In this document: piece after piece, positions 2,463-64,000 of the stretch | How positions within the stretch are numbered: position 1 is the first letter of the stretch | Layout: each line of letters starts with the position of its first letter | NCBI GenBank assembly: GCA_038087875.1 | Contig: CM075995.1 | Location: 1,800,001-1,864,000, forward strand | From: Malacoraja senta | Taxonomy: Eukaryota | Direction of reading: 5' to 3' | DNA: 64,000 bases | Position numbers and translations under genes: made by a program | Notes under the pieces: model-generated | The model's database searches: none | What the model was told of the DNA's origin: nothing | The model's input: the letters and a program-made list of their open reading frames with translations, nothing else

Positions 2463-3160
2463 ATCTATCTCTCCCTCCTAACCCCATTCTCCTGCCTTCT
2501 CCCCATAACCTCTGACACCCGCACTAATCAAGAATTTATCTATCTCTGCCTTAAAAATATCCACTGACTTGGCCTCCACAGCCTTCTGTGGCAAAGAATT
2601 CCACAGATTCACCACCCTCTGACTAAAGACATTTCTCTTCATCTCCTTCCTAAAAGAACATCCTTTAATTCTGAGGCTATGACCTCTAGTCCTCGACTCT
2701 CCCACTAGTGGAAACATCCTCTCCACATCCACTCTATCCAAGCCTTTCACTATTCTGTACGTTTCAATGAGATCCCCCTTCATTCTTTTAAACTCCAGCG
2801 AGTACAGGCCCAGTGCCGACAAACGGTCATCATGCATTAACCCACTCATTCCTGGGATCATTCTTGTAAACCTCCTCTGGACCCACTCCAGAGCCAGCAC
2901 ACCCTTCCTCAGATATGGGGCCCCAAATTGCTCACAATATTCCAAATGCCTCCTGACCAGCGCCTTATAGAGCCTCAACATTACATCCCTGCTTTTGTAT
3001 ACAAACACCCTTGAAATAAGTGCTAGCATTGAGTTTGCTTTCTTTACTATCGATTCAGCTTGCAGATTGACTTTTTGGGAATCCTGCACCAGCACTCCCA
3101 AGTCCATTTGCACCGATTTCTGGATTCCCTCCCCGTTTAGAATATAGACATTTGTTTCTA
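2463..3160 (-). mobile_element. CR1-clade LINE ORF2 3' fragment
   Basis: ORF 2478-3215 contains DLGVLV...LYKALVRRHLEYCEQF...QRRFTRMIPG...LWNSLP; its N-terminus runs into an adjacent SINE. Confidence 0.92.
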
Positions 3161-4016
3161 CTTCTCCCCTTGACCTGCGTGGGTTTTCTCTGAGATCTTC
3201 GGTTTCCTCCCACACGCCAAAGACGTACCGGTTTGTGGGTTAATTGGCTTGGTATAAATGTAAAATAAAATGTTCCCTGGTGTGTGTAGAGTAGTTTTAA
3301 TGCGCGGGGGGGGATTGCTGGTCGGTGCAGACTCGGTGGGCCGAAGTGCTTGTTATGGCACTGGCCCATCTACCAGATCTATTCCTCTCAAATAGGAATA
3401 TTCTTCAGAACATTATTAAAGCAAGTGCATTAGTGGGGGGAGAACATTTATTTAATAAAAACTTGTTTCTGAAAAAATGCTATTTCGCAGTAAAGTTTCC
3501 AGGTTATTTAAGGAGCGGGTTTGAAGAGAAATATGTGAATTCAAGCAAAGAAATACCCATGCCTTTAAATATTTAACACTTTTTTGATGAAGTGACATTG
3601 ATGACTGATACAAGGAAGCCTTACGAAAGAGAATATTTAACAAGGTCTTTACAATGTATGATAAACAACACAGTTGCTTGTTTTTATGTTGTAAATGATC
3701 ACAAATTTAACTCATTGTTTATTTTTTCAGTTTAGTTTAGAGATACAGCGCGGAAATGGGCCCTACGGCCCGCCGAGTCTGCACCGACCAGCGATCCCCG
3801 CACACTAACACTATCCAGCATACACTCGGGACAATTTACAATTTTTACCAGGCCAATAAACCTACAAACCTGTTTACCTTTGGAGTCATTCCATGGATGA
3901 CTTTGTTAGAATGAAAGCTAATATAACAGCAAAGGAATAAATGGTTAGTTAACCTGTTTCTGGTTTCTGGTGTTGGTTAAGAAAGTCGTATTCAAAAGGA
4001 TGCCATTAGAAGGTTG

Positions 4017-10364: not shown

Positions 10365-10814
10365 AGGGGCTGTCCCACTTGGGCGACCTAATCCGCGAGT
10401 TTGCCCTCGACTCATACTCGCAGCATGGTCGACACGAGGTCATAGGAGGTCTTCGTAACTCTCCTTCATGCTCGAGAGTGGTCTCCGCGTACTCGAGGCC
10501 TCAGCTAGGTCGCCATTGACAAAATCAATACTTTTTTTACTCGTAGGTTTAGTCATAGTAGGTCGGCATGTTAGTCATAGGTAATCGAGGGTAGTCAAAG
10601 GTAGTCGTAGATAGTCTTCATCATAGTCGAAGGGAGATCGAAGGAGATCGATGGAGGCCGTCTTCACTCTCCACTATTCAGTGTCCAATTTCCCCGAAGT
10701 TAGTCGTAGCTAGTCGAAGCTGGTCTTCTACATAGTCGAAGGAGGTCTTCAACATGTCATTTTTCCAAACTCTTCTAAACTCGCCAATTAGATCGCCGAA
10801 GTGGGACAGCCCCT
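10365..10814. mobile_element. PIF/Harbinger-like MITE
   Basis: TIR AGGGGCTGTCCCACTT...AAGTGGGACAGCCCCT; TTA on both sides (10362-10364, 10815-10817). Confidence 0.8.
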
Positions 10815-10817
10815 TTA

Positions 10818-11231
10818 TAAAAAATGTCATGTTGAAGACCAGCTTCGACTAGCTACGACTAATTTCGGGAAAATTGGACACCGAATAGTGGAGAGTGAAG
10901 ACGACCTCCTTCAACCTCCCTTCGACTATGATGAAGACTATCTATGACTATCTTCGACTACCCTCGATTACCTACGACTAACATGCCGACCTACTACGAC
11001 TAAACCTACGAGTAAAAAATGTAGCGATTTTTTTCCATGACGACCTTTTTTTACTCGCGGGCATTTTTTAACATATTGAAAAAAACGCCGCGACCTAGCT
11101 GAGGCCTCGAGTACGCGGGGACCACTCTCGAGCATGAAGGAGCGTTACAAAGACCTCCTACGACCATGCTGTAAGTAGAGGGCAAACTCGCCAGAACTCG
11201 CGGATTAGGTCGCCCAAGTGGGACAGCCCCT
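10818..11231. mobile_element. Inverted partial copy of the preceding MITE
   Basis: Reverse-complement homologue of 10365-10765; ends in TIR followed by TTA (11232-11234). Confidence 0.8.
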
Positions 11232-16234: not shown

Positions 16235-16770
16235 TTTAGTTTAGTTTGGAGATACACAGCCCCTTCAGCCCAACGAGTCCGCTCCGATCAACCAGCACCC
16301 GACTATAAGTTCCATGTTATCCCAGTTTCACATCCTACACACCTAGGGACAATTTACAGAGGCCAATTCATCTACCAACCTACATGTCTTTGGAATGTGA
16401 GAGGAAACCGGAGCACCCGGAGAAAACCCATGTGGTCACAGGGAGATCGTACAAACTCCGTACCGACAGCACCCGTGGTCAGGATTGAACCCATGTCTCC
16501 GGCGCTGTAAAGGGCCTGTCCCACTTTCACGACCTAATTCACGACCTTTTTTACTCGTGGACATTTTTCATCAGGTTAGAAAAACGCCCCGACCTACTTG
16601 ATGCCACGAGTACCTACGACTAGCATCACGGCCTGCTCCGACCTACCTACGACCTTCTGCGACCTCGTGACGACCATGCTGCGAGTATGAGTCAAGGGCA
16701 AACTCGGCAGAGGTCGTGAAAGTGGGACAGGCCCTTAAGGCAGCAATGCAACCACTGCGCCACCGTGCCT
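16235..16770 (-). mobile_element. HE1-like SINE interrupted by a MITE
   Basis: SINE sequence GGCGCTG-TAA-GGCAGCAA is split at the TAA. Confidence 0.85.
16511..16735. mobile_element. PIF/Harbinger-like MITE (225 bp)
   Basis: TIR AGGGCCTGTCCCACTTTCACGACCT; TAA TSD at 16508-16510 and 16736-16738. Confidence 0.88.
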
Positions 16771-22128: not shown

Positions 22129-22450
22129 AGGGCGGCACGGTGGTGCAGCGGTAGAGTTGCTGCCTTACAGCGCTTGCAGCGGCGGAGACACGGGTTCGAT
22201 CCCGACTACGGGTGGCTGTCTGTACGGTGTTTGTACGTTCTCCCCGCGACCTGCGTGAGTTTTCTCCCAGATCTTTGGCTTCCTCCCGCACTCCAAAGAC
22301 GTACAGGTTTGTAGGTTAATTGGCTTGGGTTTGTATATGTGTATAATTTGGCCCTAGTGTGTGTGTGGGCTTGTGTTAGTGTGCGGGGATCGCTGGTCGG
22401 CGCGGACCTGGTGGGCCGAAGGGCCTGTTTCCGCGCTGTATCTCTAAACT
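22129..22450 (+). mobile_element. HE1-like SINE, full length
   Basis: Complete head/core/tail. Confidence 0.92.
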
Positions 22451-22492
22451 CTACTCTACACGAAAAACTATACACTATCAGATCCTTAAACC

Positions 22493-24111
22493 AACCTGCA
22501 AGTTAAGGGCAAGACTGCTTTATCAAAGGGAGCTGAGGGAATGCTCTGTGTTCTGTTTCACAGAGACATGGCTCACCCCCCAGCTCCCAGACTCAGCGGT
22601 CCAGCCTGAAGGGTTCTCCATTCACCGTATGGACCGTACACTGGCATCTGGGAAGGGGAGAGGAGGGGGCGTCTGCCTCATGGTCAACTCTGCGTGGTGC
22701 TCAGACGTGGCAGTCCTGTCCAACTCGTGCTCTCCACACCTGGAACATCTGGCGGTGAAGTGTCGTCCCTTCTACTTTCCGAGGGAATTCACCTTCATCA
22801 TCCTGACCGCGGTCTACATCCCACCCCAGGCAGACGTCCGTCTGGCACTGGAGGAGCTGCACGCAGTGGTCAACAAACACCAGACGTCCCACCCCGAGGC
22901 ATTTACCACCATAGCTGGGGACTTCAATAAGGCAAACCTTATGAAATCGCTCCCTAACTTCCACCAACATGTCTCCTGCTGCACCAGAGGACCAAACACC
23001 CTCGACCACTGCTACACCACCATCAAGAATGCCTATCGTTCTATCCCTCGCCCTCACTTCGGTAAATCCGACCATACCACGGTGCTGCTTCTTCCTGCCT
23101 ACAGGCAGCAATTAAAGAGCGCACCCCCAGAGGTGAGGACAGTACAGAGCTGGTCAGGGGGGGGGGGGGGGGGCAAAGGAACAACTCCAGGACTGTTTGG
23201 AGTCTGTAGACTGGGCAATGTTCAAGGACTCGGCAATGGACTTGAACGAATACGCCACAGTCGTTACAGACTTCATAAAGAAGTGTGTGGAGGACTGCAT
23301 CCCCACAAAAACCTTCCGAGTGTTTCCCAATCAGAAACCTTGGATGAACTTTGAGATCCGCACTCTAATGGACTTTGGAAGGAGTAGGATGGGGACCAAC
23401 AGGCCCGTTTATATCAACGGGTCGATGGTTGAAAGGGTCAAGAACTTCAAATTCCTGGGCGTACACATCTCTGAAGATCTTTCCTGGTCCGAGAACACAG
23501 ATGCCATTATTAAGAAAGCACATCAGTGCCTCTACTTCCTGAGAAGATTACGGAGAGTCGGTTTGTCAAGGAGGACTCTCTCTAACTTCTACAGGTGCAC
23601 GCTGACCGGTTGCATCGTGGCTTGGTTTGGCAACTTGAGCGCCCTGAAGCGGAAAAGACTACAAAAAGTAGTAAACACTGCCCAGTCCATCATCGGCTCT
23701 GACCTCCCTTCCATCGAGGGGATCTATCGCAGTCCCTGCCTCAAAAAGGCTGGCAGTATCATCAAAGACCCACACCATCCTGGCCACACACTCATCTCCC
23801 TGCTACCTTCAGGTAGAAGGTACAGGAGCCCTGAAGACTGCAACGACCAGGTTCAGGAATAGCTACTTCCCCACAGCCATCAGGCTATTAAACTTGTCTC
23901 GGACAAAACTCTGAACATTAATAGCCCATTATCTGTTTATTTGAAGTTTATCAGTTTATTTATTCATGTGTGTATATATTTATAGAATGGTATATGGACA
24001 CACTGATCTGTTTTGTAGTCAATGCCTACTATGTTCTGTTGTGCTGAAGCAAAGCAAGAATTTCATTGTCCTATCAGGGACACATGACAATAAACTCACT
24101 TGATCTTGAAG
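22493..24111 (+). mobile_element. Rex1/Babar-like LINE, internally deleted (AP endonuclease plus post-RT C-terminus)
   Basis: CFTETWL...RGGGVCL...AVYIPP...AGDFN...TLDHCY...GKSDH (APE motifs); frameshift at poly-G 23156-23173; jump at ~23367 to DFGR...FKFLGVHIS; possible TSD TCC(T/C)TAAACC. Confidence 0.88.
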
Positions 24112-30757: not shown

Positions 30758-30956
30758 AGATAGACACGAAAAGCTGGAGTAATTCAGCGGGACGGGCAGG
30801 ATCTCTGGAGAGAAGGAATGGGTGACGTCAGACTGAAGAAGGGTCTCGACCCGAAACGTCACCCATTCCTTCTCTCCAGAGATCCTGCCCGTCCCGCTGA
30901 ATTACTCCAGCTTTTCGTGTCTATCTTTGGTTTCAACCAGCATCTGCAGTTCCTTC
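30758..30956. mobile_element. Perfect fold-back pLTR-derived element with hammerhead core in loop
   Basis: 71-bp perfect inverted arms at 30758-30828 and 30856-30926; core at 30833-30860. Confidence 0.88.
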
Positions 30957-30959
30957 TTA

Positions 30960-31186
30960 AGGGCCTGTCCCAGTTTCACGACCTAACTCACGACCTCTGT
31001 CGAGTTTGCCCTTGACTCATACTCGCAGCATGGTTGTCACGAGGTCGTAGGTAGGTCGTAGCAGGCCGTGCTGCTAGTCGTAGGTACTCGTGGCATCAAG
31101 TAGGTCGGGCCGTTTTTCTAGCCTGATGAAAAATGTCCACGAGTAAAAAAGGTCGTGAATTAGGTCGTGAAAGTGGGACGGGCCCT
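30960..31186. mobile_element. PIF/Harbinger-like MITE (reverse-orientation relative of 16511-16735)
   Basis: TIRs AGGGCCTGTCCCAGTTTCACGACC / GGTCGTGAAAGTGGGACGGGCCCT; TTA TSD. Confidence 0.88.
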
Positions 31187-31604
31187 TTACACATTGAAAT
31201 GAAAAGCTGGTGTCAGTACATTAAAAAAGTTCATAGAAAATTTCATTTCAAGGCCACTTGCCACGAAACCCCTCTGGTGGTGATCTAACTCTATTTGGCA
31301 CCGTTCGCTCTGGCGAGCTCCCAACATGTAATCAGACAGGCAGAAAATTCCATGTAACAATCCCTTAATATTCACAGTCTCCCCAGTACACCGTGTGACT
31401 TGGACATGGTGAAGTTGGGCTAGAAAGGAACAATAGGTTTTCATTTGGTCATGGGCCAGATAGAAATAATATCAACACAACTGCTAAAAAATGGAACAAG
31501 GGATCCTATAAACTGGAAAATAGGAAAAATGTCTTGGAGGTAGCTTGGCTCAGCTGGTAATCCATTTTCAGCTGAATCGGTCTGCACTTTCCACGCTGCA
31601 GTCC

Positions 31605-32291
31605 CCGACAGTCTTTTCATGTGAGGTAGAGGTTCACTTGCACCTCCTCCAACCTCATCCGCTGTATCCGCTGTTCTAGGTGTGGTCTCCTGTGTATCGG
31701 CGAGACCAAGCGCAAGCTCAGCGATCGTTTTGCTGAACCGTCCTCTCGGTCCGCCTAAACCTACCTGATCTCCCGGTTGCTGAACACTTTAACTTCCGCC
31801 CTCCCCCCCCCTTCCCTCCCATTCCCACGCTGACCTTTCTGTCCTGGGCCTCCTCCACTGTCAGAGTGAGGCCCAGCTCAAATTGGAGGAACAGCACCTC
31901 ATATTTCACTGGGGCAGCTTACAACTCAGCGGGATGGATTTTGATTTCTCTCACTTCAAGTAAACATTGCATCCGCTCTCTCTCCGTCCCTCCCCCACCT
32001 TAGTCATCGTACTAGTTTCACTGTCGTCCTGTTGAGTTTCACCGTCTCGGTATCACCTGGCCCACAGCCAACAATGGACCATTGTGGGCTCCATCAATCC
32101 TTGATCATCGTTGCTTTTTGCATCTCTTTCATTCATTTGTTCTATATCTCTATATCGCCGTCTATATATCGTTTGTTTCCCTTTCGCCCGACTCTCAGTC
32201 TGAAGAAGGGTCTCGACCCGAAACGTCACCTATTCCTTTTCTCCAGTGATGCTGCCTGACCCGCTGAGTTACTCCAGCTTTTTGTGTCTAA
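31605..32291 (+). mobile_element. Penelope 3' fragment (degenerate GIY-YIG) plus pLTR
   Basis: FTCTSSNLIRCIRCSRCGLLCIGETKR-like sequence; hammerhead core at 32200-32227. Confidence 0.85.
32200..32227 (+). ncRNA. Minimal hammerhead ribozyme-like core
   Basis: CTGAAGA-A-GGGT-CTCG-ACCC-GAAA-CGTC. Confidence 0.7.
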
Positions 32292-37323: not shown

Positions 37324-38055
37324 AGGGCCTGTCCCCCTAGGCGATTTTTTAGGTGACTATCGGCGACTGTCATAGTCGTAGCAGGTCGCCGAAAAACCGG
37401 CGACTGGACTTACTGGGCCTGTCCCACTTAGGCGATTTTTCCAGTGACTGCCGGCGACTACAACAATGGAATTCACTGGAGTCAACACCGGCGACAACCT
37501 ATGTCCCCTGGCGACAACCTACGCCATCTTGGCGACAACCTACGTCCCCTGGCGACAACCTACGCCATTTTGGCCACAACCTACGTCCCCTGGCGACAAC
37601 CTGCGCCATCTTGGCGACAACCTACGTCCCCTGGCGACAACCTACGCCATCTTGGCGACAACCTACGTCCCCTGGCGACAACCTGCACCATCTTGGTGAC
37701 AACCTACGTCCCCTGGCGACAACCTGCGCCATCTTGGCGACAACCTACGTCCCCTGGCGACAACCTACGCCATCTTGGCGACAACCTACGTCCCCTGGCG
37801 ACAACCTGCGCCATCTTGGCGACAACCTACGTCCCCTGGCGACAACCTACGCCATCTTGGCGACAACCTACGACAGGAGAAGACAAGCTACGACGGTCGG
37901 CGACTGTCGACGAAAAGTTTTGAACATTTCAAAATCCAGCAGCGACCAGAAAAACGCTACGACGCTTTGGGCGACGAAGGAGGCTACTCACGACCGTACA
38001 GGCGACACCATGTGGCGGCAGTCGCCTAAAATATCGCCTAAGTGGCACAGGCCCT
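37324..38055. mobile_element. PIF/Harbinger-like MITE with internal minisatellite, inserted in a SINE head
   Basis: AGGGCCTGTCCC...TAGGCGAT / ATCGCCTAAGTGGCACAGGCCCT; extra internal left end at ~37415. Confidence 0.82.
37490..37872 (+). repeat. 41-bp dimeric minisatellite (9 units plus a partial)
   Basis: Strict alternation of GGCGACAACCTACGTCCCCT (20 bp) and GGCGACAACCTRCGCCATCTT (21 bp). Confidence 0.97.
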
Positions 38056-39995: not shown

Positions 39996-40328
39996 TGTAT
40001 TCATTGCCTCATGATGGTGAAAATGTTGCACTAATTCAGATGGTCTGGGATTTTAAACAACTTACAACAATAGTGGAAAACTGAATAAATGCTACTAATT
40101 GGTGGAAAGGATTGTGTGACTTGAATAGTGGACAGTGGAATAGGGAATTATAATCTCTCTATCCAATTGCCTGTGGATGTGCCTGATGGTTTGTATGCAT
40201 TCACATTAACCTCTCAAGTAGCCCTGTCTGATGTATCATAGCCGCCTATATGACATTTAGTGCCTGTGACTCTCTCTTTAACCCTCAACCTACCTGATCT
40301 CCCGGTTGGCAAACACTTTAAAGCCCCT

Positions 40329-40974
40329 TGCAACCGCAAGAGATGCAACACTTGTCCCTTCACTTCCCCCCTCCACTCCATTCAAGGACCCAAGCAGTCG
40401 TTCCAGGTGCGACAGAGGTTCACCTGCATCTCCTCCAACCTCATCTATTGCATTCGCTGCTCTAGATGCCAGCTGATCTACATCGGTGAGACCAAGCGGA
40501 GGCTTGGCGATCGTTTCGCCGAACACCTCCGGTCGGTCCGCAATAACCAACCTGAACTCCCGGTGGCTCAGCACTTCAACTCCCCCTCCCATTCCGTATC
40601 TGACCTCTCTGTCCTGGGTCTCCTCCATGGCCACAGCGAGCAACACCATAAATTGGAGGAAATGCACCTCATATTCCGCTTGGGCAGTCTACATCCTGGT
40701 GGCCTGAACGTTGAATTCTCCCAATTCTGCTAGCCCTGGCTGTCCCCTCCCCTTTATCAGCCATCTGGTTGTCTCCTCCCCTCCCCCAGCCCTCGGGCTC
40801 CTCCTCCGCCTTTTCCTTTTTTCCTTTCTTCTCCCCACCCCCTATCAGTCTGAGGAAGGGTTTCGGCCCGAAACGTTACCTATTTCCTTCGCTCCATAGA
40901 TGCTGCTGCACCCGCTGAGTTTCTCCAGCATTTTTGTGTACCTTCGATTTTCCAGCATCTGCAGTTCCTTCTTT
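40329..40974 (+). mobile_element. Young 5'-truncated Penelope-like element: GIY-YIG endonuclease C-terminus plus pLTR
   Basis: CNRKRCNTC...NLIYCIRCSRCQLIYIGETKRRLGDRFAEH...VAQHFN, open to the stop at 40733; hammerhead core 40850-40877; 17-bp TSD AACACTTTAAAGCCCCT (40312-40328, 40975-40991). Confidence 0.92.
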
Positions 40975-40984
40975 AACACTTTAA

Positions 40985-41377
40985 AGCCCCTGTCCCACTT
41001 AGGAGACCTAAACAGCAATCTCTGGTGACCTTGCCCGCCACCCAAAATAAAATCAAGGTCGAGGTGACCTGCAACCTCCTACCACCTCCCACGCATATGT
41101 TGAAAACCTTCCTCGACTGTGAAGAAAACCGGCTTCGACTAGACCTGCGACTAAAAATTGATCGATTTTTAAAACGGCAACCTATTTTTAGTCGAGACGT
41201 CGGTTTTAAACACGATGAAAAAATAGCAGCAACCTAGATGACGCCTCGACCACGCGGAAACCACTTTCGACCATTAGGGAGAGTGACCAAAACCTCCGGT
41301 GAACCTCATGGAAACCTTGGGTGGCGGGCAAGGTCACCAGAGGTTGCTGTTTAGGTCTCCTAAGTGGGACTAGGGCT
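40985..41377. mobile_element. PIF/Harbinger-like MITE (393 bp)
   Basis: 61-bp TIR with 3 mismatches (AGCCCCTGTCCCACTTAGGAGACC...); TAA TSD. Confidence 0.88.
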
Positions 41378-42136
41378 TAACTCCCCCTCCCATTCCCACA
41401 CTGACCTTTTTGTCCTGGGCCTCCTCCACTGTCTGAGTGAGGCCCAACACAAATTGGAGGAACAGCACCTCATATTTCGCTTGGGCAGCTTACACCCCAG
41501 CGGTATGAACATTGACTTCTCTAACTTCAAGTAACTCTTGCTTTCCCTCTCTCTCTATCTGTCCCCCTTCCCAGTTCTCCCACCAGTCTTACTGTCCTCC
41601 TGATTAAATTTCACATTGCATGCCTCGTTGTCAGCTTCCCCTCGCTAACAATGATCTATTCTACATTTTCCTTGATCTTTGCTCCCTTTGATCCCTCGTT
41701 TTCACACCTTGCCCTTCCATATCACGGCAGCATGGTGGCGCAGCAGTAGAGTTGCTGCCTTACAGCGCCAGAGACCTGGGTGTGATCCTGATTGTCTGTA
41801 CGGAGTTTGTACGTTCTCCCCGTGACCTGCGTGGGTTTTCTCCGAGATCTTCGGATTCCTCCCACACTCCAAAGACATGCAGGTTTGTAGGTTAATTGGC
41901 TTTGGTGTAAATGTAAAATGTCCCTATTGTGTGTAGGATAATGTTAATGTGAGGGTAACGCTGGTGGGCCGAAGGGCCTGTTTCAATGCTGTACCTCTAA
42001 ACTAAACGAAATATCACACATTTTCCTCTGCCCCGACTCTCAGTCTGAAGAAGGGTCTCGACCCGAAACGTCACCCATTCCTTCCATGCAGAGATGCTGC
42101 CTGTCCCGCTGAGTTACTCCAGCATTTTGTGTCTTT
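41378..42136 (+). mobile_element. Older Penelope 3' fragment/pLTR, interrupted by HE1-like SINE 41726-42010
   Basis: KLEEQHLIFRLGSLHP-like sequence; SINE TSD ATATCAC; hammerhead core at 42045-42072. Confidence 0.85.
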
Positions 42137-49122: not shown

Positions 49123-49741
49123 ATAGAAACATAGAAAATAGGTGCAGGAGTAGGCCATTTGGCCCTTCGAGCCTGCACCGCCATTCAATATGATCATGGC
49201 TGATCATCCAACTCAGTATCCTGTACCTGCCTTCTCTCCATACCCCCTGATCCCTTTAGCCACAAGGGCCACATCTAACTCCCTCTTAAATATAGCCAAT
49301 GAACTGGCCTCAACTACCCTCTGTGGCAGAGAGTTCCAGAGATTCACCACTCTCTGTGTGAAAAATGTTTTTCTCATCTCGGTCCTAAAAGATTTCCCCC
49401 TTATCCTTAAAATGTGACCCCTTGTTCTGGACTTCCCCAACATCGGGAACAATCTTCCTGCATCTAGCCTGTCCAACCCCATAAGAATTTTGTAAGTTTC
49501 TATAAGAACCCCCCTCAATCTTCTAAATTCTAGCGAGTACAAGCCGAGTCTATCCAGTCTTTCTTGATATGAAAGTCCTGCCATCCCAGGAATCAGTCTG
49601 GTGAACCTTCTCTGTACTCCCTCTGTGTCAAGAATGTCCTTCCTCAGATTTGGAGACCAAAACTGTACACAATACTCCAGGTGTGGTCTCACCAAGACCC
49701 TGTACAACTGCAGTAGAACCTCCCTGCTCCTATACTCAAAT
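49123..49741 (-). mobile_element. CR1-clade LINE 3' fragment
   Basis: ORF 49213-49707 (LVRPHLEYCVQFWSP...); splits a pLTR element at CCTTCTT. Confidence 0.92.
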
Positions 49742-50339
49742 CCTTCTTCAGACCAAGAAACGAGGAACTGCGGACGCTAGTATACAAACCACAAAACAAC
49801 CACAGTACTAGTTCAAAAAAAAACTGGAGTCCTTAGTACAACTAAAGACAGTCCATGAAAAGACACAAAGTGCTGGAGGAACTCAGCGGGTCAGACAGCA
49901 TCTCAGGAGAACATGGAGAGGTGACGTTTCAGGTTGGGACACTTCTTCAGAAACTTTCCAAAAGACTGTGCGGTGCCAATATCGTATCTGCCTCAACGAC
50001 CGCCCCTGGCAGCGCGTTCCAGGCACTCACCGCCCTCTGGGTGAAAGACTTGACTCAGACCATCAGGCTGAAGAAGGGTCCCGACCCAAAACGTTACCCT
50101 CCAGAGATGCTGTCTGACCTGTGGAGTTACGTCAGCACTTTGTGTCCTTTTTCAGAACAAGATCACACTTAGTTTAGTTTAGTTTATTGTCGCATGTACT
50201 GAGGTACAGTGAAATCCTTTTTGTTGCATGCTAGCCAGTCAGCGAAAAGACTATATTTAATTACAATTAAGCCGTCCACAGTGCACAGATACGGGACAAG
50301 GGAATAAGGTTTAATGCAAGATAAAGTCCGATTAAATAT

Positions 50340-60599: not shown

Positions 60600-61224
60600 A
60601 GGGCCTGTCCCACTTGGGGCATCACTTACGCGACAGGCCGGTAGTGACGGTCGCGCGACGGTCCCGCGAGAGTTGCGCGCGTCATCATGCTCCCGCACAG
60701 CCGTCTGGAGCGCGTGACATCATTTGAAGAAGGACATAAAATGCAGGAGTAACTCAGCGGGACGGGCAGCATCTCTGGAGAGAAGGAATGGATGATGTTT
60801 CGGGTCGAGGCTCTTCTTCAGTCTGAAAGAAGGGTCTCGACCCGAAACGTCATCTATTCCTTCTCTCCAGAGATGCTGCCCGTCCCGCTGAGTTATTCCA
60901 GCATTTTGTGCCTATCTTCAATTTTCTTGGCCCAGCTCTGGGAGTAGGAGTGGTGGACGGATCCGGATCCGCAACGGCCGTGAGCCCCAGGCCGAGCTCG
61001 GCGATCGCTTGCCTGCTTCTGCTGCTGTTGGAGGTGAGACGTTGCGTCCAGGGTCTTGGACCTGTCCCACCTTAGTTACGCGACAGGTCAGTGGCGGGCG
61101 AAGATTTAGTGCAGGACGAGGTCCACACTCCTCCACACCACTCCATGCGCCCATCCCCGCACTACCCACACGCTAGCAGGTCGCGTAAATGGCGCACGAA
61201 AGACAGCCAAGTGGGACAGGCCCT
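60600..61224. mobile_element. PIF/Harbinger-like MITE carrying a captured hammerhead fold-back cassette
   Basis: TIR AGGGCCTGTCCCACTTGG / CCAAGTGGGACAGGCCCT; cassette ~60724-60921. Confidence 0.85.
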
Positions 61225-61504
61225 TAAAGCTTCAATGAGTCCAACATCAAAGTAAACAACTTCAGTGGAGTTACAGTACACAGATCAAATAGAATCAAAT
61301 AGATCAAACCAGATTTAATTGGTTAAATTAGTAAATTTGTTGTATTCATAGTTTCACCCGTTCCTTTCTTTTAGGGGAGTTGGGTGTAAATTTGTGAGAT
61401 GCCTGTGTTTGACATATTTGACCATCTGTATGTAATGATATGCAGGTACGACGACTCTGAAATAAAGCAGACTCTGCAATCGGTAGCCCTTGTCTCTGAA
61501 GTAT

Positions 61505-61870
61505 ACATAGAAACATTGAAAATAGGTGGAGGTGGAGGCCATTCGGTCCTTCCAGCCAGCACCGCCATTCAATATGATTATAGCTGATCATCCAGAATCA
61601 GTACCCCATTCCTACTTTCTCCTCATATCCCTTGATTCCATTAGTCCTAGGAGGTAAATCTAAGTCTCTCTTGAAAACATCCAGTGAATTGGCCTCCACT
61701 GCCTTCTGTGGCAGAGAATTCCACAGATTCACAACTCTCTGGCTGAAAATGTATTTTCTCATCTCAGTCCTAAATGGCACCACCCTTTATTCTTAAACTA
61801 TGATCCCTTGTTCTGGGGAACATGAGGAACATTTTTCCTGCATCTAACGTGTCCAACCCCTTAAGAATTG
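61505..61870 (-). mobile_element. CR1-clade LINE 3' end
   Basis: ORF 61598-61783. Confidence 0.85.
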
Positions 61871-62074
61871 TATACAGGAGGGCAGGGGCAACTGCTGCCT
61901 GGTAGAACACAATCATTGCGGATAGCGGTGAACACAATCTCCAAATGCCTTTTCCCTCCATTTTCCTCAATTGTGTTGTTGCATCGAAGGCTACAGGAAC
62001 TTTCATCACTGATATGTCTCCAGTCGGCTCCAAAATTAAAAAATGCCCTAAGGGGCTTCAAGGGCCCTTCATCA

Positions 62075-62450
62075 AGGGCGGCACGGTGGCGTAGTGGTAG
62101 AGTTGCCGCCTTACGGCACCAGAGACCAGGTTTGATCCTTACTACGGGTGCCTCTTCTGTATGGAGTTTGTACGTTCTCCCTGTAACCATGTGGGTTTTC
62201 TCCGAGTGCTCTGGTTTCTTCCTATACTCCAAAGACAAACAGGTTTGTAGGTTAATTCCCTTGGGTTTGTTTATTTCCAATTTCCCTCCGGGGATGAAGA
62301 AAGCTTTATTGTATCGTATTATATCGTATACTTGGTATGTGTAAATTACCCCTAGTGTGTGGAGGATTGTGTTAATTTGCAGGGATCGCTGGTCGCCGCG
62401 GACCTGGTGGGCCGAAGGGCCTGTTTCCGCGCGGTATCTCTAAACTAAAC
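62075..62450 (+). mobile_element. HE1-like SINE with short insertion
   Basis: Family similarity. Confidence 0.85.
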
Positions 62451-62451
62451 T

Positions 62452-62652
62452 GTGTACGAAAGAACTGCAGATGCTGGTTTAAACCAAAGATAGACGCAAA
62501 ATGCTGGAGTAACTCAGCGGGTCAGGCAGCATGTCTGGAGAGAAGGAATAGGTGAAGACCTGAACAAGGGTCTCGACCCGAAAGTTCACCTATTCCTTTT
62601 CTCCAGTGGTGCCGTCTGACCCACTGAGTTACTCCAGCCTCTTTATGTCTAT
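62452..62652. mobile_element. Fold-back pLTR-derived element
   Basis: Inverted arms around the degenerate core CTGAACAAGGGTCTCGACCCGAAA. Confidence 0.78.
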
Positions 62653-62655
62653 ACT

Positions 62656-62737
62656 ATCAATAGCATCTGATTGATCAATAGCATCTGATTGCTCAATAGC
62701 ATCTGATTGATCAATAGCATCTGATTGATCAATAGCA
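62656..62737 (+). repeat. 18-bp tandem repeat (ATCAATAGCATCTGATTG), ~4.5 copies
   Basis: Direct observation. Confidence 0.92.
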
Positions 62738-62791
62738 TGCAAAGCAAAGCCTCGGTACATGTGACATAAACAAAAACAATTGTAAGCCTAA

Positions 62792-63489
62792 AGGGCCTGT
62801 CCCACTTACGTGTCCTTGGCACGCAAATTACGCGACCTCGTGGTCGCGTTGAGCCGCGGTGGTCCCGCGAAGGTCGGGCGCGATTACATGCGTACGCACA
62901 GCCGTCTGGAGCGCGTGACGTTATTTGAAGATGGACACAAAGCTGGAGTAACTCAGCCGGACCGGCAGCATCTCTGGAGAGAAGCAATGGGTGACGTTTC
63001 GGGTCGAGACTCTTCTTCAGTCTGAAAAGAAGGGTCTTGACCCGAAACGTCACCCAGTGCTTCTCTCCAGAGATGCTGCCGGTCCCGCTGAGTTACTCCA
63101 GCATTTTGTGTCTATCTTCAATTTTCTTGGCCCCGCTCTGGGAGTAGGAGTGGGGGCGGATCCGGACCCGCAAACGGCCATGAGCCCCAGGCCGAGTTCG
63201 GCGATCGTTTGCCTGCTTCTGCTGCTGTTGAAGGTGAGACGTTGCGTCGCGTCAGGGTCTTGGGCCTGTCCCACTTTGGCCGTCAGTTCCGCGACAGGCC
63301 GTTGGCGCGCGAAGATTTCGTTCGCTACAAAAAATTTCGGAGCCCCGCGCGATGTCGCGCACAACTCCATACCCCTCCGCGCTTCTCAGTGGGACCGGCC
63401 CCGCGCGGCCATACGATGCCCGTGCGCCTCGACGCGACCTCGAGGTCGCGTAATTTACGTGCCAAGGACACGTAAGTGGGACAGGCCCT
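62792..63489. mobile_element. PIF/Harbinger-like MITE carrying the same captured cassette
   Basis: ~65-bp TIR AGGGCCTGTCCCACTTACGTGTCCTTGGCACG...; cassette ~62924-63121; middle homologous to 60690-61075. Confidence 0.87.
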
Positions 63490-64000
63490 TTAATCCTGAA
63501 CCTAAAGAGACATTGGAAGATGCGTCATCGATGAGGTCGAGAGCTGTGGAAAGACTGAAGAAAGAATGTGCAGCAGACTCCAGAAGATAGACTCAGCGGG
63601 ACAGGCAGCATCTCTGGACAGAAGGAATGGGTGACGATTCGGGTCAAGACCCTTCCCTCAGACTGGCTTCCAGCTGCTGAGTTACTCCAGCATTTTGGGC
63701 CTACCTTCAGTGTGAACCAGCATCTGCAGCCCCTTCCTACACACTGCCCATGCCACAAACCCCAATGTAGAATATGTCACTTGTGAGAAGATTGATGGGG
63801 TTGCCAGGGATGTAATATGCGTGCCCCTGTGGTTTACCGAGCTACAGTCAAGTATCACACAGAGCGTTCAAATAAATATGCAGGGAACATTAAATAGAGT
63901 CTGCTTTGTTTCAGTCTTCTCAGTCGCACATTATTACATCCAGATGATCAAATATGTCAAACACAGGCATCACGCTAATTTACTCCCGCCTCATGTAAAA

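Follow-up and report, generated by a model that had tools for sequence, protein, structure and literature searches.

Non-autonomous DNA transposons that amplify pieces of Penelope retroelements have been described in Anolis carolinensis, where hobo-N1 to hobo-N6 are non-autonomous hAT families with a 520-bp Penelope insertion in the ancestor of their group A and where Helitron-2N3 carries Poseidon pieces; ends were also exchanged between hobo groups by recombination (PMC3014272, available part). We analyzed a 64,000-nucleotide stretch of the Malacoraja senta genome (GCA_038087875.1, contig CM075995.1, positions 1,800,001 to 1,864,000; hereafter the window), in which two miniature inverted-repeat transposable elements (MITEs), E1 and E2, each contain a head-to-head fold-back of a Penelope pseudo-long terminal repeat (pLTR). 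The original prediction for this locus, made from the sequence alone, knew of no description of such a chimera; in that respect it did not hold, because the Anolis hAT families and Helitron with Penelope cargo make the type, a DNA transposon carrying a Penelope piece, a known one. This particular family was not found described in the literature searched, with Dfam, Repbase and paper supplements outside that search. Like the Anolis families, E1 and E2 are non-autonomous DNA transposons with an amplified Penelope piece and apparent end exchange, but they have PIF/Harbinger-like ends, are 0.6–0.7 kb long, and have as their cargo a pLTR fold-back of 195 bp that contains two hammerhead motifs; the available part of the Anolis account does not mention ribozymes for hobo-N or Helitron-2N3 (PMC3014272). 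We consider it likely that E1 and E2 are copies of one highly repeated terminal inverted repeat (TIR) element that share a single Penelope fold-back, which entered once and then travelled as an inert passenger, the element being moved in trans by a PIF/Harbinger-type transposase. The features of the two elements, with the motifs they contain, are as follows.

60600..61224, plus strand: E1, a 625-bp non-autonomous TIR element with PIF/Harbinger-like ends, flanked by TTA and TAA.
60698..60724, plus strand: left unique segment of E1, ending in ATT, the left half of a probable 3-bp duplication from the Penelope insertion.
60725..60920, unstranded: Penelope pLTR fold-back of E1, two ~95-bp arms placed head to head.
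60794..60821, minus strand: minimal-hammerhead motif in the left arm of E1; core bases present, two of four helix II pairs, helix III palindrome changed.
60823..60851, plus strand: minimal-hammerhead motif in the right arm of E1; one extra A within CUGANGA.
60921..61057, plus strand: right unique segment of E1, beginning with ATT, CpG-rich.
61058..61224, plus strand: 3′ module of E1, from the inner TIR-like motif to the right TIR, a shortened mini-MITE-like unit.
61225..62791, unstranded: 1567-bp spacer between E1 and E2, a candidate inverted segment judging from the flank triplets.
62792..63489, plus strand: E2, a 698-bp non-autonomous TIR element, flanked by TAA and TTA.
62899..62925, plus strand: left unique segment of E2, ending in ATT, high contig depth.
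62926..63120, unstranded: Penelope pLTR fold-back of E2, an inverted repeat with a DNA fold.
62993..63020, minus strand: minimal-hammerhead motif in the left arm of E2; core bases all present, three of four helix II pairs.
63022..63051, plus strand: minimal-hammerhead motif in the right arm of E2; two extra A's within CUGANGA.
63121..63261, plus strand: right unique segment of E2, beginning with ATT, GC 0.62, CpG observed/expected (o/e) 0.96, high contig depth.
63262..63489, plus strand: 228-bp 3′ module of E2, an inner TIR-like end (87.5% identical to the E1 left end over 40 bp) followed by the right TIR.

Both elements open with AGGGCCTGTCCCAC and close with the reverse complement of AGGGCCTGTCCCAC, the TIRs being 18 bp and perfect in E1 and 66 bp with 93.9% identity in E2. 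Alignment of E1 with E2 by BLASTN gave 86.6% identity over 470 columns (E 4e-159). From 5′ to 3′, the segments were 72.2% (5′ end), 92.9% (left unique), 91.2% (cassette), 94.9% (right unique), and 79.0% (3′ end) identical, while the 150-bp flanks matched at only 61% and 53% with 32–42 gap columns and are unrelated. The two MITEs with Harbinger-type ends therefore have the coordinates and anatomy given in the original prediction, with TIRs and alignment in agreement, and their TIR-proximal sequences differ as it stated (ends 72–79% versus middle 91–95% identical); the shared middle, which it put at ~390 bp, comes close to the 360 bp that separate CAGCCG from the inner TIR in E1. Short, non-coding, high in copy, and set in distinct flanks, both elements have the properties of MITEs. 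A 212-codon stop-free frame over E2 was considered as a gene and rejected, as its Pfam matches numbered zero.

Abundance was gauged over positions 62738–63590, at 80% likeness, from three contig runs of three organisms (X1, X2, and X3) and one polyA RNA run (X23). Summed contig depth in the MITE-specific bins, which is not equivalent to copy number, was 3.1e5–6.7e5 at 62883–62911 and 2.5e5–1.7e6 at 63144–63259 in X1, X2, and X3, against 0–72 in the right flank bins (63521–63590), which gives a middle-to-flank ratio of 6,000–60,000, or 200–2,000 after division by 31 for word overlap. Inspection extended to 24 of the 436,598 contig pieces and to 15 of the 1,293 joints. Two records of X2 (9 and 13) and two of X3 (23 and 24) have a match that ends at a TIR and then passes into unlike DNA, and in records 1 and 2 of X1 and record 9 of X2 an E2-type left end runs gapless into the middle. 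Record 17 of X3 spans the right junction (63079–63246) with 28 other letters, the side of the unaligned part being ambiguous. The E1-type form with one extra A reached a depth of 128,877 in X2 (60 contigs), 97,587 in X3 (55 contigs), and 3,500 in X1 (37 contigs). The MITE family is thus abundant in the three organisms, and many of its copies are probably cassette-bearing. Were E1 and E2 just two copies arising from a local duplication, their being 1.57 kb apart and the sole such pair in the 64 kb would be well explained, but their flanks are unrelated, and contigs run from the element into other flanks. The MITE-specific depth, thousands of times that of the flank in all three organisms, refutes the possibility that only these two copies exist, which we regard as extremely improbable, and together with those contigs it bears out the predicted spread as a high-copy family with distinct flanks. 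The further claim of at least two MITE subfamilies, here E1-type and E2-type, is partly supported: the ends have diverged much further than the middle, and E2-type left ends are colinear with the middle in three other contigs, but the depth comparison covers the E2 region only.

Three broader searches were also made. In 14 large runs (eight organism labels, eight studies), 0.36–0.59 of 387 words from a 3.6-kb stretch were present, a fraction that includes other repeats, is not MITE-specific, and was not counted. A 21-base motif had one match in metagenome_contigs, L001, which was rejected as a chance occurrence within what looks like bacterial coding sequence, where the similarity went no further, and a 19-base motif had no match in viral_contigs.

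The cassette itself is a 195-bp head-to-head pLTR fold-back with a 95-bp inverted repeat and ATT on either side, occupying the same place in E1 and E2. The DNA fold of the E2 cassette has an energy of -108.7 kcal/mol (z -25.9), and 0 of 200 shuffles folded equally well. The pLTR has two features of Penelope elements, a GIY-YIG end upstream and an inverted copy adjoining the direct copy, the latter in E1, E2, and five free sites. GIY-YIG-homologous ends at 31603–31957 and 41364–41528 lie upstream of cassette-type arms at 32192 and 42037, and a further fragment at 40254–40730 has a GIY-YIG Pfam match (E 1.2e-4, 22.7 bits versus a cut-off of 22.6) with a C-x5-C-xx-C motif upstream. A CX2-5CxxC linker upstream of GIY-YIG marks Neptune/Nematis-type elements (PMC8557442, available part); here it was seen in the 40254 fragment, whose pLTR belongs to a sister subfamily, and the comparison for the two fragments adjoining cassette-type arms did not extend over the linker region. 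Penelope-like elements (PLEs) typically leave inverted 5′-truncated copies on insertion (PMC8557442), and an Anolis Penelope protein cuts 5′-ATT-3′ and does not need ribozyme cleavage for insertion in vitro (PMC11167929), as far as the available parts of these sources describe. The cassette resembles PLEs in both the inverted truncated copies and the ATT at the insertion site. Unlike PLEs, E1 and E2 keep only pLTR arms and no open reading frame, and their copy number derives from the DNA transposon rather than from retrotransposition.

Five free head-to-head fold-backs occur in the window (~25575, 30758, 52106, 59029, and 62487), each with its own centre. Given these and the normal insertion mode of Penelope, the fold-back is an ordinary product of this genome, and the carrier is the special part. 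The free fold-back at 30758–30927 has almost perfectly complementary arms, private variants included, which suggests recent insertion or strong arm conversion. Immediately past another free fold-back lies an 18-bp tandem repeat of about five copies (62657–62746). The window is nearly all repeats, and frame pieces of a reverse transcriptase/endonuclease of the long interspersed nuclear element type were seen at 2478–3239, 22380–23862, and 49213–49776, with a weak Exo_endo_phos match for that at 22380.

The cassettes of E1 and E2 were compared with other pLTR arms found by BLAST with a free copy; of the 46 rows returned, 10 covering <70 bases were dropped and 36 were used (four in E1 and E2, 32 free). 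Within the window, the extra A's, the GAG, and the centre sequence are each confined to E1 and E2, and the arm-specific characters common to the two are GAG and a C near the tail in the left arm and the extra A's in the right arm. The junctions are identical, with ATT on each side, as the original prediction had described, and its proposal that the ribozyme module was captured once also held. A single origin of the cassette is supported by the same junctions, the same centre, and the arm-specific shared changes, while the five free fold-backs have five other centres. Separate insertion of Penelope fold-backs at the same site in E1 and E2 would draw on the stereotyped tail-side ends of the pLTR and on three sites where both E1 arms differ from both E2 arms, as separate templates would produce. 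This is very improbable, however, as the identical centre, the left-only GAG, the right-only extra A's, and the shared C near the left tail occur in none of the free arms compared. At these three mirrored sites the two arms of an element agree with each other and disagree with both arms of its counterpart, a pattern suggestive of arm-to-arm conversion. The arm differences number 9 and 8 across 101 columns, and for three of them to coincide P is 0.023 when only position is considered and 0.003 when matching bases get an even chance. A single insertion with such conversion accounts for both the shared characters and the mirrored sites, whereas separate insertions account only for the latter.

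Each arm contains a motif matching the published minimal hammerhead ribozyme, which consists of CUGANGA, GAAA, a G10.1–C11.1 pair, and a palindromic helix III stub and has low, dimer-dependent activity, and the cassette resembles Neptune-clade pLTRs in these elements and in one unpaired base before helix II (PMC4209133); dual hammerhead motifs on opposite strands have been noted in Schistosoma (PMC4209133, available part). The hammerhead call rests on this motif match, as Rfam at gathering score gave no match in the window. The full minimal type I structure (core, four helix II pairs, and helix III stub) was present in none of the four MITE arms and in 8 of the 32 free arms. According to the original prediction, both copies carry the same type of core lesions. 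The extra A's (one in E1, two in E2) and the GAG were indeed found in both, but GAG is a helix II mismatch at position 10.2 and not a core base. The statement that the cores are disabled was too strong, as the E2 minus arm keeps every core base, damage is also present in 24 of the 32 free arms of the window, and five free fold-backs occur nearby. What the shared changes attest is common descent; they are no evidence that selection disabled the cores. When the cassette was folded with RNAfold, the closing pair of helix II had a probability of <=1e-15 and 82–94% of the core was paired with the other arm, a burial of the ribozyme that is a relative statement only. Ribozyme cleavage is not expected from a cassette transcript in this model, because the transcript would fold into a ~95-bp hairpin burying the one sense ribozyme; among the read ends listed for the polyA RNA run, there was no pile-up at the expected cleavage sites, which is weak evidence. 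Non-LTR retrozymes are likewise non-coding, Penelope-derived, hammerhead-bearing vertebrate repeats, but they form head-to-tail tandems with intact motifs on one strand (bioRxiv 10.64898/2026.07.22.740005, available part). With its arms head to head inside TIRs and one motif per strand, the cassette was rejected as a retrozyme.

A number of observations weigh against the proposed reading. E1 (TTA/TAA) and E2 (TAA/TTA) lack a direct TWA (W is A or T) duplication, the triplets being inverted, and the 19 frames of 150 or more codons in the window, five of which were scanned with Pfam, yielded neither a transposase nor an autonomous partner. The abundance is measured by contig depth, which is not copy number, in DNA runs that were saturated. 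Junction identity across genomic copies is drawn from E1, E2, one bridging contig, and indirect depth, given the few pieces and joints inspected, and the absence of a cassette-skipping joint among the 15 of 1,293 is weak for the same saturated runs. No cassette-free copy was seen, so that Penelope may have jumped into the element or the ends may have captured DNA that already contained the cassette. Lastly, free-monomer controls also fail to form helix II in RNAfold (P 0.00–0.35), which leaves the burial a relative argument and makes that program of little use as a ribozyme test.

The inverted triplets bear on the class of the carrier. PIF/Harbinger TIRs are mostly <60 bp with A or G as the first base (PMC4482050), and E1 and E2 begin with AGGG. 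Both resemble PIF/Harbinger (Tourist-like) MITEs in being short and non-coding, with A/G-start TIRs of 18–66 bp and a TWA on each side (PMC4482050, PMC9179366, available parts); they are unlike them in the inversion of the TWA triplets, in a middle that is more conserved than the ends, and in the lack of an autonomous partner seen in the window. Four of the five other AGGG-type elements of the window (M10, M16, M31, and M41) have a direct TWA, and the fifth (M37) is flanked by TAA and TTG. Because the duplications of E1 and E2 are inverted rather than direct, we call the putative carrier only Harbinger-like, and its PIF/Harbinger membership hinges on the target duplication. Had the spacer between the inner TIRs of two TTA/TTA elements been inverted, the flanks would read exactly as they do in E1 and E2, which makes such an inversion a candidate explanation; an inverted TWA would also result if one end had been copied onto the other or if the target rule were different. 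The flanks of E1 are mirror images for 7 bp.

The mobilizing enzyme might instead be not a TWA-duplicating PIF/Harbinger transposase but one of a TTAA-, TA-, or no-duplication type, either Kolobok-like or Spy-like within PHIS. Kolobok elements follow a TTAA target rule, and E1 would have TTAA on both sides if its ends start at GGG, with CTAA and TTAA for E2. Inverted flanks also fit E1, E2, and M37, and Spy elements insert without duplication (PMC4482050, available part). We consider another enzyme unlikely, as four elements with the same terminal motif have direct TWA duplications and a spacer inversion would explain the E1/E2 pattern exactly.

Other Harbinger-like elements of the window were noted alongside. 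Those at 16511–16735 and 30960–31186 (M16 and M31) form one MITE family (91.9% identity) in opposite orientations, with clean TAA/TAA and TTA/TTA flanks; the latter lies within a Penelope tail, and a Harbinger-like MITE at 40985–41374 lies within a Penelope endonuclease end. The element at 37324–38055 (M37) has the same terminal motif, an inner TIR at ~37415, and an internal 41-bp tandem array. Related TIRs bound an element at 10365–11231 that folds back over its whole length (867 bp, self-inverted at 70% identity) and has an inner right TIR close to 10814; it looks like a MITE joined to its own inverted copy.

The history that we propose for E1 and E2 would begin with a Neptune-type Penelope protein cutting at an ATT site in the ancestral element and copying in a short 5′-truncated pLTR together with an inverted copy, leaving a 3-bp ATT duplication. 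The element would then have been mobilized in trans by a PIF/Harbinger-type transposase with the cassette carried inert, and the cassette may have decayed neutrally, since nothing but the ends is required for the host element to move. Ends would later have been exchanged or diverged between subfamilies, and the two cassette arms may occasionally have been copied onto each other. Another order of events, with the same passenger outcome, is a real alternative because the 228 bp at the 3′ end of E2 resemble a complete mini-MITE: the fold-back could have landed in genomic DNA beside a ~230-bp mini-MITE, now the 3′ module, after which the transposase used a second upstream end and so captured the cassette. 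The inner TIR of that module is 87.5% identical to the E1 left end, M16 and M31 measure 225–227 bp, no cassette-free form appeared among the joints inspected, and the cargo of hobo_AC has been explained by uptake of genomic DNA already holding old transposable element pieces (PMC3014272, available part). M37, however, contains an inner TIR as well, situated 90 bp from its end and without cargo, and TIRs in this position may therefore be ordinary subterminal repeats. In addition, the inner TIR does not start with TWA-A, and the unique middle shares the CpG richness of the ends (o/e 0.96–1.17), in contrast to the spacer (0.5). We regard this order as possible but as the less probable of the two, and retain insertion into the ancestral element as the preferred course.

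Conservation of the middle raises the possibility that the cassette was kept for a function. A CpG-rich promoter-like sequence would then drive the pLTR hairpin and yield double-stranded RNA against an abundant host Penelope family. E1 and E2 are more alike in the middle than at their ends, and the three mirrored sites suggest that the arms are kept alike. Adjoining the cassette, the family majority base at 62922 (C in all four runs, 94–98% in the DNA runs) creates a palindrome of the cAMP response element (CRE) type at 62915–62923. The right unique segment (63121–63261), with a run resembling a GC box and, near 63234, a site resembling a splice donor, is possibly the remnant of a transposon promoter; a sigma-70 scan found nothing above shuffles, but this is a bacterial promoter model not relevant to a vertebrate. 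Conversion within the palindrome and exchange of ends, however, explain the conservation and the likeness of the arms without selection, and hairpins are already plentiful from the free fold-backs (five in 64 kb). The polyA RNA run had only 18–48 reads per mate strand in the MITE-specific bins, with strands about equal on the 3′ side; 0.98 of the reads continue into unlike sequence, and no start pile-up is apparent among those listed. Few, two-stranded reads that run into other sequence are as expected of copies inside host transcripts. Mismatches in X23 included 28 A>G and 34 T>C among 318 listed places, where paralogues confound editing. A retained function is on this evidence quite unlikely. 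Marginally less likely still is its fullest form, in which the DNA transposon would be a dispersal vehicle for a self-homogenizing ~95-bp anti-Penelope hairpin present in hundreds to thousands of copies, with CRE-bearing promoter-like sequence giving small RNAs that silence the most abundant retroelement and with host selection aiding its spread across related species. Should the hairpin prove to be a source of small RNAs, the importance of the family would be much greater.

If the family is, as seems likely, a DNA transposon with an inert Penelope passenger, its consequences are mainly for annotation: in repeat masking and in hammerhead surveys the cassettes would be tallied as Penelope insertions or as ribozymes, even though it is the DNA transposon that accounts for their number. 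The presence of several Harbinger-like MITE families in the window bears on the presence of Harbinger in cartilaginous fish: in the available parts of these sources, Harbinger was not found in the elephant shark and other cartilaginous fish were left to check (PMC9179366), while PIF-Harbinger is listed for the whale shark (PMC8455134). A large family with a fixed palindrome would also lend itself well to measuring, on natural material, how often arms convert each other and ends are exchanged.

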